A DNA stretch of 64,000 bases. It comes from a virus. Below, piece after piece: positions 10,515-21,382 of the stretch. The number at the start of each line of letters is the position of its first letter. The stretch's first letter is position 1. Below the pieces are notes generated by a model that did no database searches, was not told where the DNA came from, and saw only the letters and a program-made list of their open reading frames with translations. The DNA lies in the IMG/VR virus record IMGVR_UViG_3300012984_000568, positions 20,373 to 84,372 of that record. The stretch is one strand, 5' to 3'. Made by a program: the position numbers and the translations under genes.

Positions 10515-10964
10515 TCAACGGAAGGTGCGAATTAGGGCGAGCACGGCGATGGCGCCAATGACGAGCAGAGCGACGTACGGCACCCACCGGCGCTCGAGGT
10601 CATACGCTCGTTGTCTTCGGTCGATCGCTTTTACGAGCTCGTTGGTCTCGATCGAGAGCTGCGCCGCCTTTCGGCTGCTCTTTTTGATGATCGTGAGGTC
10701 TTCGCCGCGCTTGCGGTCCGATTCTTCTAGCTTGGTGAGCCGCTCCATCACGCGAATTTCAAAAGGCCTCTCGGCTGGGGTGAGTTCGTCGTGGTCGGTG
10801 TCGCGGATCTCGTGATCGGCTTGCCCCAGGTTCGACAGCGGGCGCAGGCGCGTGACGCCGGCTACCGCTTCAGCGATTTGGAGCTTTGGGCGAGAGTCGA
10901 ACGACTCCATCGGTGTGATCGCGCGATCGGCGTCGTCGAACTTGGGGGGCAACTCGCTTGCCAT
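10515..10964 (-). CDS. Coiled-coil protein with C-terminal TM anchor (lysis region)
   Basis: ATG 10964 overlaps the endolysin stop; ends VPYVALLVIGAIAVLALIRTFR. Confidence 0.6.
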   Translation of the reverse strand: MASELPPKFDDADRAITPMESFDSRPKLQIAEAVAGVTRLRPLSNLGQADHEIRDTDHDELTPAERPFEIRVMERLTKLEESDRKRGEDLTIIKKSSRKAAQLSIETNELVKAIDRRQRAYDLERRWVPYVALLVIGAIAVLALIRTFR

Positions 10965-11761
10965 CAGGAGTTTTTCTCCGCGTTCAGATCGAGGCCAGCG
11001 GCAAGGTCGGTGGTGAGCTTGTCCCAACCGGCAGCGTTGTACGCTTCTTGCTCGGCAAGGCGCTGCGCGAGCAACTCTTCGCGCGTCACCGGCGCTGGGA
11101 TCTCGTGCGGCGGCACCGCATCGCTAGGGTTCGTCTTGGCCAGCGGCAGCGGCCCGTCCGCGACGTTCTGATCGAGCAGCATCGGCTTGATCGCCCCACC
11201 GGGGCCGCCTGGATTGTACGGACCGACCGTGCGCTGCCAGATCGCGAACGGCCTGTCTCCTGGCGTCGCTGGCTTCGCTGCGTGCGTGTAGTGAGCGACC
11301 CAAAGCGGGCGAGCGAGAACCCACGCCGGCTTGCCGAGGCGGCCGAAGTCGCGCTGCGTGATGTAGATCATCACCTCGCCGAACTCGCTCAGCAGCCCAT
11401 CGCAAAACTGGCTTAGCTTCGGCTCCCACGACGGCTCGAGCTTCGCGGTCAGGTCGTCTTCGACGTCGATCGCCGGCGCGATGTCGCCCGCTCCGATTCC
11501 GCAGGTGATGGCCTGCGCGCAGAATGCGTCGAGCTGCTCGGTGACGCCCTGGGTTGACCGAAAAAAATGATAGAGCCCGACCTGGAGCCGGGCCGCCCGC
11601 GCGTTCTTGATGTGGGCCTGAGCGCTAGCGTCCTTCGATGAGCCGTAGGTTGCGCGCACGATTGCGAACTTGCTGGCCTGCGCGATGGTTGACCAGGAAA
11701 CGCCTGCGGGGGCGCTAGTGTTTTGGAAATGCGAAACGTCGACGCCGTAGATGCGGGGCAT
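10964..11761 (-). CDS. Endolysin, glycoside hydrolase family 25 (muramidase)
   Basis: GVDVSHFQ, IVRATYG, GLYHFF, AIDVED, LWVAHY and IWQ motifs of GH25. Confidence 0.9.
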   Translation of the reverse strand: MPRIYGVDVSHFQNTSAPAGVSWSTIAQASKFAIVRATYGSSKDASAQAHIKNARAARLQVGLYHFFRSTQGVTEQLDAFCAQAITCGIGAGDIAPAIDVEDDLTAKLEPSWEPKLSQFCDGLLSEFGEVMIYITQRDFGRLGKPAWVLARPLWVAHYTHAAKPATPGDRPFAIWQRTVGPYNPGGPGGAIKPMLLDQNVADGPLPLAKTNPSDAVPPHEIPAPVTREELLAQRLAEQEAYNAAGWDKLTTDLAAGLDLNAEKNS

Positions 11762-12063
11762 CACAGGTTTTCCCCACCAGGAACGAGCACGATGCCTTTG
11801 GCCGCACACTCGTCGGTAAGTCGGACCACTTCCGCGCCATTATTCGCGCCGTGGCGTTGAGCCTCGACGAGCGCGTTGTATTCGCGATGCAACCGGCGCG
11901 ACTCCTCGCCCATGCCGTCAGGGTAGTGAGACACGGCGGGCTGGGGAGGCGACCAGCCACTCAATTCTGCCGCAAGCGCATCGGCGAAGCGCTTGCGCTG
12001 ACCGGCAGGCGAATCTGGCACCCAACTTGCGGCCCAATCAATCAACGATTCACGCGTTAGCAT
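11761..12063 (-). CDS. Hypothetical protein
   Basis: ATG 12063 after GAGGG; TGATG coupling to the endolysin. Confidence 0.55.
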   Translation of the reverse strand: MLTRESLIDWAASWVPDSPAGQRKRFADALAAELSGWSPPQPAVSHYPDGMGEESRRLHREYNALVEAQRHGANNGAEVVRLTDECAAKGIVLVPGGENL

Positions 12064-12084
12064 CTTATTCTCGTCCCTCTCTCG

Positions 12085-12107
12085 AACGTCGCCCGCTCTG
12101 CGCGGCA
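12085..12107. repeat. Left copy of a perfect 23-bp inverted repeat
   Basis: AACGTCGCCCGCTCTGCGCGGCA is the exact reverse complement of 12442-12464. Confidence 0.95.
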
Positions 12108-12159
12108 TCGAAGTCACGGCCGTTGGCGCCTCATCGGTACCGACCGCGGCTCTCAGGAA

Positions 12160-12414
12160 TCAGACCTCGTCAGCCCAGCGCCAGCACCAGGCGCCCGCGG
12201 GATTCGAGCTCTTATGCACCACCGAAGTGAAGCGCTCGAGCTGTTGTCCATACGGGTCCGTTTTGGACTCGTCTCCCGACACGATCACGAGGTTGCACCC
12301 CGGAATCGTTCCGCCGCCGCAACCTGGCCAGACCTTGGTGACAAGGGCCGGATGGGCCTCACGGTGCGCGTCAATGTAGACGATGCTGTCGCCGATCTTG
12401 AGTTCTCGTTCCAT
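12160..12414 (-). CDS. Small SH3-like phage protein
   Basis: 84 aa; KIGDSIVY..PALVTKVW..NLVIV..TSVVH..W.W pattern of a small beta-rich phage family. Confidence 0.7.
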   Translation of the reverse strand: MERELKIGDSIVYIDAHREAHPALVTKVWPGCGGGTIPGCNLVIVSGDESKTDPYGQQLERFTSVVHKSSNPAGAWCWRWADEV

Positions 12415-12441
12415 TTCGATGCTCGCTTTCCGCGGCTGCTT

Positions 12442-12464
12442 TGCCGCGCAGAGCGGGCGACGTT
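12442..12464. repeat. Right copy of a perfect 23-bp inverted repeat
   Basis: TGCCGCGCAGAGCGGGCGACGTT; also the arm of a local hairpin 12421-12458 followed by T8 on the + strand. Confidence 0.95.
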
Positions 12465-12574
12465 TTTTTTCGCAACTGGGCGCGCGAGCGCCCGAACAGT
12501 TCCCGCCACGGCGCGCCAGCCGACCCGCACGCTGAACCGACCAGCGTCAGGGAACCGGCGGCGCCGTAGGCTGC

Positions 12575-12712
12575 TTATCCGCTCACGAAATCTCTAAACA
12601 TCTGCCGTGCCACACCGAGCGCGCCCTTGCTGAAGTAGTAGCCACACACACCGAGAGCGACGACGATTGCCGCCGCCTCGCAGGTGCGGACGAAGGCCTT
12701 GCTCGAGCGCAT
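12575..12712 (-). CDS. 45-aa single-TM protein (not in the ORF track)
   Basis: TGATG coupling at 12712; MRSSKAFVRTCEAAAIVVALGVCGYYFSKGALGVARQMFRDFVSG. Confidence 0.5.
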   Translation of the reverse strand: MRSSKAFVRTCEAAAIVVALGVCGYYFSKGALGVARQMFRDFVSG

Positions 12713-13407
12713 CACGCAATGACGCTGGCTCGGCGCATCGACTGCGGAATGCCGCGGCGCGCGAGGCGACTGCCGTTCGTCTTCTTGGGCTCAGCCGCAA
12801 AGCGCTGCTGCCAGCCCTTGCTCACGGCATGGAGGTCCAAATAGGCGAGGTAACCTCCAGTCAGGATTTGCAGCGGCTTGGTGACGGCGCCCGTGTAGCT
12901 CAGTGGTCCCGTCACGGGGACCGAGGGCATCCAGAACTTCGGCAGCACGAAGTCCGACACGTACACGCCGTCGATCGGGTACGCGAACGAGTCGTCCTCG
13001 CACGCGTCGCAGACCTCCGTCGCGTAGAGCTTTTGCCCCGACTCGTCGAGCAAGCAGGCGTTGATTTCGGGATCGGCCAGGAGCTCGAGCAGCTCGTGGC
13101 TGAACGTCACCGTCCAGTTTCCGCCGTTCTTGCGCGTGGTCTCGGCGAAGCAGTACCCGATCGGCGTGCCCGCCTTCGTGGTCTCGTGATAGCCAAGCGA
13201 CCCGGCGACGTCGGCGTTGTCGACCACGATCAGCTGCCAATCGTAGGCGCTCATCGGGGTGTCCTTCGCCGAGAAATGGCATTGCGCTTGGATGCCATAG
13301 GCCTTGCCGAAGTGGTGCTCGACCTGCTTGTTGCAGGCGTCGATCACGCGCTTCACGTCGGTGTCCGCAACCACGGTGGAGTGGTTTTTGACCTGTACCG
13401 CGATCAT
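12712..13407 (-). CDS. Putative zinc metallopeptidase
   Basis: GSLGYH..SHELLELLADP..EVCDACE (HExxE-type) motifs; ATGA coupling at 13404-13407. Confidence 0.6.
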   Translation of the reverse strand: MIAVQVKNHSTVVADTDVKRVIDACNKQVEHHFGKAYGIQAQCHFSAKDTPMSAYDWQLIVVDNADVAGSLGYHETTKAGTPIGYCFAETTRKNGGNWTVTFSHELLELLADPEINACLLDESGQKLYATEVCDACEDDSFAYPIDGVYVSDFVLPKFWMPSVPVTGPLSYTGAVTKPLQILTGGYLAYLDLHAVSKGWQQRFAAEPKKTNGSRLARRGIPQSMRRASVIA

Positions 13408-13724
13408 TTGCTCGCCTCCGTGCACCGGCTGTTCGCCAAACAATTCTTCGCGCCAGACAGGCACTTGACCTGCGCGGCGGTTAGCGTTTTGCACCACGCA
13501 TCCGGATCGGCCGCCTCGAAGCCGCAGCCGAGGCGCTTGGTGTTTTCGATCGCGTTGGCGCAGCTCGAGCCACCCGCCGCGGCGAACACCGTGCCGTCGA
13601 CTGACGGGTCATCTGCTGGCCAGCTGGGATCGGGGGTAGTCGGGTCCTTCGAGAGCGAACCGACGTTGCAGGAATTGCACGCGAGCGCGAGGGCTCCAAC
13701 CAGGAGCAAGGCGAGCCGGTTCAT
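13404..13724 (-). CDS. Cys-rich lipoprotein
   Basis: Signal MNRLALLLVGALALAC with lipobox; Cys-rich C-terminal domain. Confidence 0.7.
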   Translation of the reverse strand: MNRLALLLVGALALACNSCNVGSLSKDPTTPDPSWPADDPSVDGTVFAAAGGSSCANAIENTKRLGCGFEAADPDAWCKTLTAAQVKCLSGAKNCLANSRCTEASK

Positions 13725-20005: not shown

Positions 20006-21382
20006 TCAATTGGGGAGCGCGAAGACGTACGTCGGAGGCACGGTTGCTTGGTACAACCGAGAGACCGTGAGATTGGTGCCGTTGGCGCCCAAGAGCTCTG
20101 CTTGCAGCTCGGTCACCAGCACCGGGTCCCAAAGCAGATATCCGCCCTCGGCCAGATGGGTGCCGTCGACAGACAGGGAGCGGTTTGCCATGTCGGCCTG
20201 CGTTAGAACCTGGCCAACGTTCGCCATGCGGTGCGCGAATGTTGGCCACGTCGACAACAGGTCCGCGTTGATGATCTGTCGCGCGGCTTCGAAATTTGCG
20301 TCGCCTTGGACAGCTGACAACGTGCAGGCGATCACGCGGAAGCCATCCGCCATGCCGCGGCTGCACACCGACTTGTATGCAGGGAGGACGAGCGCGGCGA
20401 CTTGACTTGGCGTAAGCGTGCCCAGCCCGGCGGACACGTCGTTGATCGAGATGCCCTGGCAGACGAGAATGTTTTTCGCTCTCGATGCCGAGTAGCGAGG
20501 GAGAGCATCGGTCAGATAGAACGCGGGGATTTGCGCCGGATTCGTCGTACCCGTACCCGCCGCCGCAACGTTGATCGCGCGAGGGGGATTAGCCAGTCCA
20601 TTCAAGGACGATTGCCACGCCGGGCGCCAAGCCGCGCCAACGGAATCTCCCAGGATGATAATCAGCGGCGCGGACGTCGGAGGGTTGCCGACGGGCTTGC
20701 TCACCAAATACGCTTGGAGATCGCCTTGGTCGGTCGACGACAGCGCCTGATAGAAAACCGCGTACTGACTTACTGCTAGGTGGGAGTTCGCGTATCCGGT
20801 CCAACGCCCCAGCTGGAAGTTGGTCAGCGTTCCGGCGGTGGGCGCCGTCGCGATCACCTTCGTCGACGTGACGCCGTTGATCGTGAGTCTGATCTCAAAC
20901 TGAGTCGGGCTGCATGTCAGAAGTAGGTTGCACTCGGTGACGTTGTGACCCGGCTGAATACCAGTCAGCCCGGGTATGACTGCGGTGTACGCGGGCGATT
21001 GGAGAACAAAGCTCCCACCCTGCATATACATCGCAAGATCGGTCCCGGCGCTGTGCGTAGCATACAGCAACGGCATGGTCTGCTGCCCGCCGCGTGACTG
21101 CCATGCGAGGCCGATCGTGCAGTTGTTCGCCGGCACCGGACTCGCCGGCGCAGGGAACACCATGTAATTCGGATCGCCCGAGTGAAAGTCGAGCGCGGCC
21201 GTTTCGCGCCAAGGCCTAGCGCTCCCACTGGCCGTGATGTTTCCGGACAGCGGCGCAGGCTGCGCGATCTGCTGAACGCGACCGTATGGCGTCGCGGCGA
21301 TCGTCGAGCCCGCGTCTGAGTAGGCGGTCTGAGATCCGTCGAACCAGAGCGCCAAGTTCGGCAGGGTTGCCGGCGTGCTCAT
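20006..21382 (-). CDS. Lectin-like domain fused to SGNH/GDSL hydrolase
   Basis: IILGDSV (block I), AAGTG, INDV, DGTHL (block V); N-terminal LALWFDG LamG-like start. Confidence 0.7.
   Translation of the reverse strand: MSTPATLPNLALWFDGSQTAYSDAGSTIAATPYGRVQQIAQPAPLSGNITASGSARPWRETAALDFHSGDPNYMVFPAPASPVPANNCTIGLAWQSRGGQQTMPLLYATHSAGTDLAMYMQGGSFVLQSPAYTAVIPGLTGIQPGHNVTECNLLLTCSPTQFEIRLTINGVTSTKVIATAPTAGTLTNFQLGRWTGYANSHLAVSQYAVFYQALSSTDQGDLQAYLVSKPVGNPPTSAPLIIILGDSVGAAWRPAWQSSLNGLANPPRAINVAAAGTGTTNPAQIPAFYLTDALPRYSASRAKNILVCQGISINDVSAGLGTLTPSQVAALVLPAYKSVCSRGMADGFRVIACTLSAVQGDANFEAARQIINADLLSTWPTFAHRMANVGQVLTQADMANRSLSVDGTHLAEGGYLLWDPVLVTELQAELLGANGTNLTVSRLYQATVPPTYVFALPN

Follow-up and report, generated by a model that had tools for sequence, protein, structure and literature searches.

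Comparative sequence evidence for a helix that joins the 5′ and 3′ untranslated regions of a small phage gene

Why should one small phage gene lie between two perfect copies of an inverted repeat? The question is raised by IMG/VR virus record IMGVR_UViG_3300012984_000568, an 84-kb provirus record of which positions 20,373 to 84,372 were analyzed as a single stretch of 64,000 nucleotides (nt), here called the window. A first-pass annotation of the window had pointed to 23 nt at 12085–12107 that recur as an exact reverse complement at 12442–12464 and bracket an 84-amino acid (aa) open reading frame (ORF) on the minus strand (12160–12414); it had considered a fold-back switch on the late mRNA, an antisense terminator, and a DNA inversion as explanations. 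Both the exact match and the bracketed ORF are borne out. A search with the arm sequence at up to three mismatches returned two matches in the window and none in 100 dinucleotide shuffles, and these two arms are the only copies in the entire record. The pairing of the arms runs on imperfectly to 35 nt at 86% (12085–12119 with 12430–12464), and the segment between the repeat copies measures 334 bp. The comparisons below argue that the repeat is probably the closing helix of a cis-acting shell in the sense mRNA, built around this one gene and serving to control how its message folds, is stabilized, and is translated.

We collected relatives by scanning viral and metagenome contigs with a protein alignment, which gave about 120 loci and from these 80 non-redundant cassettes; 45 full cassettes make up alignment A3, and the window's own cassette is designated WIN. 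The helix formed by the two arms, P1, was scored as an ungapped helix with a threshold of at least 30 against shuffled and cross-locus flanks. RNAduplex applied to whole flanks was dropped as a statistic because it over-extends through interior loops. Among the first relatives, one with 98% aa identity (L003) has a single C-to-U change in the 5′ arm that produces a G·U pair on the sense strand, and another with 56% aa identity (L004) carries a perfect repeat of 19 bp, different in sequence, in the same two places. The covariation at homologous loci to which the first-pass annotation had looked for a check is present: at least 46 of the 80 loci have complementary flanks with compensation, at −47 to −18 before the start codon and +42 to +75 after the stop codon. 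P1 scores in these loci are 30 to 56, compared with 24 for the 99th percentile of shuffled flanks and 28 for the 95th percentile of cross-locus flanks. The helix is 19–51 bp long (median 30, minimum 19), and its arm sequences differ among loci. Since many independent assemblies, as well as cultured phages, show the same architecture, the repeat is not the assembly artefact that had been allowed for at the outset.

In A3, 85% of P1 cells pair, against 35–44% in slid registers (the latter for the whole tested structure). Two-sided changes occur in 25 of the 28 P1 pairs, and one pair is found as CG 17 times, UA 16, AU 4, and GC 3. None of 500 shuffles attained any of five measures scored on the whole structure. 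From the alignment alone, RNAalifold recovered P1 (its 5′ strand in A3 columns 35–57), the downstream hairpin P3 described below, and one invariant 2-bp pair inside the ORF. P1 was also part of the minimum free energy (MFE) fold in all 10 full cassettes tested. No Rfam 15 covariance model matched either strand of 11500–13000 at E values up to 5. The wobble pairs identify the strand: a model that allows G·U on the sense strand is better than the antisense rule in 35 loci, compared with 9 for the reverse, and well-paired columns hold 786 Watson–Crick, 60 G·U, and 18 A·C cells. Two pairs are G·U or U·G, in 15 and 23 sequences. Given this excess of G·U over A·C, the constraint acts on the sense RNA. 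On this sequence evidence, P1 is a conserved RNA helix that joins the 5′ and 3′ untranslated regions (UTRs) of the 84-aa gene.

The 5′ strand of P1 (the right copy, 12442–12464, minus strand) has a second partner close by. Its outer part is free to vary; its inner part consists of a pyrimidine tract (CUCU) resembling an anti-Shine–Dalgarno (anti-SD) sequence and a conserved core, X (CGCGGC, 12443–12448). Six nucleotides downstream of X, across the loop 12437–12442, lies X′ (GCCGCG, 12431–12436), the 3′ half of a local holding hairpin that rivals P1 for the core. The 3′ strand of P1 (the left copy, 12085–12107) carries X″ (GCCGCG, 12101–12106) and, in the part matching the pyrimidine tract, an SD-like purine tract (CAGAG). 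The competing hairpin described in the first pass is recovered by folding: in the sense RNA, the right copy pairs with 12431–12436 and partly with GGAAAG (12426–12431), the SD-like tract of the 84-aa gene, and the 5′ UTR folded alone adopts this local hairpin. X pairs with X′ in 95% of cells, and four of the six pairs change on both sides. All seven sequences with variants in core X compensate both in X′ and in the distal X″, a coupled covariation of one segment with two partners. In 23 sequences X″ has U at a position where X′ stays C, which suggests that the balance between the partners is tuned. The stretch of the 5′ arm upstream of X is rich in pyrimidines (CUUCC, CUCU) and can pair with the SD purines. 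This lower local stem is moderately supported: pairs 46–79, 47–78, and 49–76 are kept in 35–40 of 45 sequences with UA/CG exchanges, and 65% of its cells pair overall, compared with 38–52% in slid registers. As judged from covariation, then, two helices exist, both conserved, mutually exclusive, and on the sense strand. One locus (L146, a near-copy of L138) has lost X′ together with the SD tract in its 5′ UTR and, separately, X″ in its 3′ arm, with the ORF intact. In this locus the switch has a naturally occurring variant with two deletions, unless the difference is one of assembly.

A further conserved element follows the stop codon, at the place of one of the extra hairpins noted in the first pass (12115–12148, minus strand). 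Its stem, P2, pairs 12142–12148 with 12115–12121, leaves a 3-nt bulge at 12122–12124, and encloses the hairpin P3 (GGUACC-GAUGA-GGCGCC, 12125–12141). All seven P2 pairs show two-sided changes in the main type, and the outer pairs of P3 covary. The P3 consensus is GGNNCC-GANGA-GGNNCC; the strict form lies within 80 nt past the stop codon in 93 of 117 loci, and a variant of it is present in most others. The loop reads GAUGA in 43, GACGA in 8, and GAAGA in 3 of 68 representatives, and the two central pairs are of wobble or purine–purine type (UG/UG 23, UA/CG 22, AA/GA 9). More distant relatives have different loops (UUGAC, UUAAC). Elsewhere in 1.1 Mb a relaxed P3 pattern looks random, and the window holds a single copy. 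The exact P3 18-mer occurs 23 times in 185,579 genomes, compared with about 17 by our own estimate of chance; none of these matches lies beside the gene, and they were dropped as chance. By this pattern of occurrence, P3 is linked to the 84-aa gene. Because P2 and P3 are present even in the 34 relatives that lack P1, they are the core companion of the gene, and P1, by the same comparison, marks large clades. On a quick, poorly resolved tree, P1 presence takes 8 label changes, compared with 25.6 for shuffled labels.

P3 would be a separate invariant module, one-to-one with the gene. A protein probably binds it, and this binder is possibly the gene's own product. In lambdoid phages, boxB hairpins present GNRA-like pentaloops that are bound by N. 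The GANGA loop of P3 could likewise form a GNRA-like pentaloop over a short G–C-closed stem, a resemblance that we treat as a lead; in contrast to boxB, a tandem wobble or mismatch (UG/UG, UA/CG) is conserved in the P3 stem, no boxA accompanies it, and the neighboring 84-aa protein has no arginine-rich motif. Hammerhead-like (CUGAUGA-type), K-turn, and sarcin–ricin-loop readings of P3 were rejected, as their partner elements are missing by eye and Rfam gave no match.

The product itself had been labeled SH3-like, a description that holds as a generic fold and no further. The model of the 84-aa protein is a predicted five-strand barrel of the SH3/Tudor/KOW type (pLDDT 89), and the protein is predicted to be soluble, with no hydrophobic helix. 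Our searches placed it in no named family: neither Pfam nor PHROGs gave a match, a sequence search of the PDB gave a best E value of 0.56, and Foldseek against the PDB and viral models returned nothing at E 0.001 or better. The best hits of a VIA wide structure search (Z up to 7.0) were Tudor/KOW-type barrels and fell within the background range. Its nearest ESM Atlas clusters are viral hypothetical proteins. A profile search collected 748 clusters at 50% identity, in almost all of which the small protein stands alone.

These elements suggest an order of folding. During transcription of the 5′ UTR, its arm would be parked in the local hairpin, with X on X′ and the anti-SD-like tract on the SD purines, and the ribosome-binding site would be partly masked. 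Once the 3′ UTR emerges, its arm, an SD-like mimic joined to X″, would capture the 5′ arm in an end-to-end duplex of 19–51 bp and release X′ and the SD tract. The duplex would also insulate the folding of the cassette from flanking genes or tRNAs. It would probably stabilize or mark the message. With both RNA ends in a double helix, it may act as a stabilizing clamp, and it would be long enough for an RNase III substrate: a near-perfect duplex of about 20 bp or more, a feature of RNase III substrates, is present in P1. RNase III processing stems enclose the 16S and 23S rRNAs, and RNase III sites lie between phage T7 genes. Like these stems, P1 is a long duplex (at least two helical turns) around a functional unit in a polycistronic transcript; unlike them, it encloses a protein-coding gene, which RNase III may or may not cut out. 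The inner 3′ arm may have yet another partner. Its segment c′ (UUCGAUGC, 12105–12112, A3 columns 581–585) is complementary to segment c just before the start codon (GCAUCGAA, 12415–12422) or, in relatives, to the loop of the local hairpin, and pairing of c′ with c would give a further closed state. We infer the order of folding, the effects on translation and stability, any cutting by a nuclease, and the binder of P3.

Predicted accessibility favors this scheme within limits: the probability that the SD tract is unpaired rises from 0.35 in the nascent RNA to 0.54 in the full-length RNA and is higher in 43 of the 45 cassettes, a moderate shift that is a prediction on related sequences. Several observations weigh against the scheme. 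The pairing of c with c′ is only weakly above controls, even with paired variants among relatives (GGCAUC/GAUGCC, GGCAGC/GCUGCC, GGCACC/GGUGCC, and GACAUC/GAUGUC); in the window, the alternative state with c pairing is predicted 0.6 kcal/mol above the MFE. In Rhizobium phages and in two further loci (L072 and L061), the long-range pairing covers the SD tract instead of freeing it. The 34 of 80 relatives without P1 keep the gene together with P2 and P3. Finally, single-stranded DNA (ssDNA) tolerates G·T pairs, so that the strand asymmetry fits ssDNA of the same strand as well and cannot by itself separate it from RNA. Because P1 is missing in 34 of 80 relatives and the direction of its effect on the SD is mixed, gating of translation by P1 is not the core function of the family. 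Among the models of the first-pass annotation, the late-mRNA switch is the one that the comparisons favor: both helices are kept by compensation, with G·U pairs on the sense strand. The predicted effect on the SD differs among relatives. [quoted passage not shown]

Control by fold-back of the 3′ UTR onto the 5′ UTR is known from a handful of bacterial mRNAs, namely hok, aapA3, dinQ, and icaR. The hok mRNA combines the tac/fbi fold-back, the anti-SD element ucb, and a metastable 5′ hairpin (PMC9841398, citing Thisted 1995, Franch 1997, and Gultyaev 1997), and the signature of coupled covariation was described for it (PMC9841398). Further tested fold-back mRNAs are aapA3 (PMC6733600) and dinQ (PMC5066626). 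Like the cassette, hok has a small ORF in an mRNA closed by a long-distance 5′–3′ stem, with anti-SD/SD pairing in the switch and a metastable 5′ hairpin that shares the 5′ element and covaries with it. It differs in that hok encodes a hydrophobic killer peptide, while the product here is predicted to be a soluble β-barrel. Moreover, the anti-SD of the cassette lies in the 5′ arm and its closure is predicted to open the SD tract rather than lock it, no sequence or Rfam relationship links the two, and P3 has no counterpart in hok. The hok-type fold-back mRNAs come with antisense RNAs (PMC9841398); the corresponding feature here is a plus-strand hairpin followed by U8 in the window's lineage only, for which a consensus scan found no promoter. 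We therefore place the cassette outside the hok family by the nature of its product; the kind of mechanism is known, and the variant is new. In Staphylococcus aureus icaR, the 3′ UTR pairs with the SD region of the 5′ UTR, forming an RNase III substrate (PMC3868564). Intramolecular 5′–3′ UTR pairing, SD-like and anti-SD-like motifs, and a long duplex are common to icaR and the cassette, and the variants in Rhizobium phages and L072 resemble icaR further in placing the 3′ UTR directly on the SD. In the main subfamily, by contrast, the helix lies upstream of the SD, is much longer (median 30 bp), covaries across many diverged phage loci, and has a competing 5′ hairpin.

The cassette has tail, lysis, or baseplate genes as its neighbors and is found time and again between tRNA genes. 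Neighbor orientation was taken from tRNA genes only, as longest-ORF calls are unreliable in high-GC DNA, where spurious antisense ORFs arise; wherever tRNA genes lie within 300 nt, they are on the strand of the 84-aa gene (8 of 8 loci). In the tRNA arrays (L117, L118, L126, L142, L098/L100, and L157/L158), the arms are 8–22 nt from tRNA genes (7–22 nt over Vibrio phage Va2 and several metagenomic loci), and tRNA-processing enzymes would release the helix-closed message from such transcripts. Cultured phages belong to this group. In Vibrio phage Va2 (L156, MW073017.1), the gene sits between tRNA-Glu and tRNA-Arg, and its AT-rich P1 starts 7 nt past the first of these and leaves about 10 nt to the second; the inter-tRNA RNA is predicted to be closed by a helix of about 31 bp (z −4.4). 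In the Rhizobium Cuauhnahuacvirus phages, the gene lies between tRNA-Thr and tRNA-Ala, and the SD region itself is what the 3′ UTR pairs with. In the tRNA array of Va2, at 1285–1359, ARAGORN calls a tRNA with anticodon UUA ("tRNA-Stop," suppressor-like), two genes upstream of the cassette.

A bolder version of the shell reading, which we put forward tentatively and hold to be rather doubtful, is a portable ribonucleoprotein (RNP): the barrel would bind its own P3, the message would be excised from any transcript, whether operon or tRNA precursor, as a discrete and stable RNP, and the cassette would spread with borders set by the RNA. If true, phages would have a self-contained RNP cassette of a new class, for which roles as a regulator, a decoy, or an addiction module are all possible. 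The shell reading would itself add a large phage-borne family to the few fold-back mRNAs, with the 748 clusters drawn from soil, sediment, rhizosphere, and marine phages. The comparative support is unusually clean, and the coupled covariation exposes a folding pathway. A widespread, unannotated small phage protein tied to an invariant RNA hairpin makes a concrete hypothesis, and cassettes in cultured phages open tRNA-flanked processing, translation timing, and hairpin binding to direct testing. The helix-closed design may also serve as a natural context-insulating expression cassette.

The sharp borders of the cassette invite a different explanation, in which the cassette is an ultra-small mobile element of DNA with the arms as its terminal inverted repeats, similar to mycobacteriophage MPMEs or to bacterial miniature inverted-repeat transposable elements (MITEs), and RNA pairing is a by-product. 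Near-identical cassettes do lose similarity exactly at the outer arm edges. Compared with its closest relative, the window's cassette is 85–89% identical and the flanks are at shuffle level, with similarity ending at the arms, and near-identical pieces from two other soil metagenomes lose similarity at 12084 and 12467. The many unrelated neighborhoods, among them tail genes, lysis genes, and tRNA arrays, also favor mobility. L089, which is of the same phage lineage as the window and has a p100 homologue and a lysin downstream, matches WIN at 91–92% in the UTRs and at 66–69% in the coding sequence (CDS); over L088 and L089 the values are 92% and 66–69%, and the proteins of WIN and these two fall in different clades of the poorly resolved tree. 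From this mismatch, shell and cargo have different histories, again as a mobile element might show. There is also precedent for small inverted-repeat-bounded units inserted between genes. Mycobacteriophage MPMEs are elements of about 440 bp with short inverted repeats and one small ORF (PMC3029335), and the Correia repeats of Neisseria form folds in transcripts, where RNase III is bound or makes cuts (PMC2649163).

Yet Correia elements and MPMEs have conserved repeats in many copies, whereas the cassette is single-copy, with arms that vary and covary with the translation start region. Ends bound by a transposase keep their sequence; here the outer arms vary and complementarity alone is kept, with wobble pairs that are strand-specific. 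An arm that covaries with a third, internal partner beside the SD would be meaningless for a DNA end. Each genome has one copy and no target-site duplication is visible, the 34 of 80 relatives without the repeats keep gene and hairpin, and an SH3-like 84-aa protein is unlikely as a transposase. Breakpoints at gene boundaries are, moreover, also what selection on mosaic phage genomes yields. An empty site was sought through relatives of the flanking genes (L151–L155); the only candidate, L151, with a small transmembrane gene followed by a p100-like gene, was rejected because the small proteins are not detectably homologous. A mobile element thus accounts for the sharp borders and leaves the freedom of the arms, the wobbles, and the SD partner unexplained, and we regard it as unlikely. 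It and the three readings that follow are weaker than a fold-back shell in the mRNA.

The second alternative concerns the window's own lineage, where a plus-strand hairpin and the adjoining T8 would terminate an antisense transcript, either Sok-like or as a stop for converging transcription. The A8 (sense)/T8 (plus strand) run reported in the first pass is present at 12465–12472, directly outside the 5′ arm. On the plus strand, the hairpin spans about 12420–12459 (z −3.15; 0 of 200 shuffles), with U8 beginning 4 nt later, and the run is kept in WIN, L088, L089, and L090; the antisense RNAs of hok-type mRNAs (PMC9841398) offer a parallel. But the run is missing from the other approximately 40 P1-bearing lineages, and its restriction to the window's lineage means that an antisense terminator cannot explain the conserved structure, so the first-pass model fails as a general account. 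In addition, we found no plus-strand promoter-like site against the sigma-70 consensus (which may not suit the host), the terminator scan was silent, wobble statistics favor the sense strand for the conserved pairs, and the 84-aa protein is not a small hydrophobic toxin. We give this reading a low probability.

It is very unlikely that the structure acts instead in sense-strand ssDNA, as a recombination, replication, or packaging hairpin. Besides the G·T tolerance already counted above, the coincidence of cassette boundaries with the helix would suit it. What the arm pairs with in its alternative states, however, is the SD tract or the nucleotides that precede the start codon, and the arms lie 7–22 nt from tRNA ends in co-oriented arrays, both of which point to a role in the transcript; no ssDNA-recombinase gene was noticed nearby. 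Weakest of all, and extremely improbable, is an inverton in which the perfect 23-bp repeat flanking the 334-bp segment provides recombination sites that toggle the gene: contigs of the source and other runs contain no inversion junction (rare forms could escape contigs), a 28-kb contig has the window's orientation, the gene and its adjacent tRNA genes point the same way in 8 of 8 loci, covariation and wobble asymmetry fit base pairing rather than protein-bound sites, and the segment is a whole gene with its own SD rather than a promoter. Inversion is without support in these data, and the repeat is most unlikely to be a DNA flip switch.

The genes around the cassette are all on the minus strand, in the order 261-aa protein, 46-aa membrane-type peptide, 84-aa ORF, 100-aa ORF, and GH25 endolysin (10964–11809). 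The 84-aa gene had been placed just upstream of the endolysin; the 100-aa ORF (p100, 12063–11761) lies between them, and the 3′ strand of P1 stops 21 nt short of its start codon at 12063. On the other side, two GC-rich hairpins (12474–12571), also noted in the first pass, lie in the spacer that separates the cassette from the 46-aa gene, and the fold of this 110-nt spacer scores z −2.59 (3 of 200 shuffles). Similarity to relatives stops at the arm and leaves these hairpins outside the conserved cassette. The 261-aa protein (12712–13497, minus strand) has a HELLE motif and no Pfam or PHROG match, and relatives at 34–45% identity occur in four viral contigs (L152–L155), where the cassette is not adjacent. 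The C-terminal 47 residues of the 100-aa protein (11761–12063) share 77% identity with the end of a 198-aa protein in another phage (L151:2548–3144), which is flanked by a small membrane peptide and a lysin-sized gene; the resemblance looks like domain shuffling in the lysis region.

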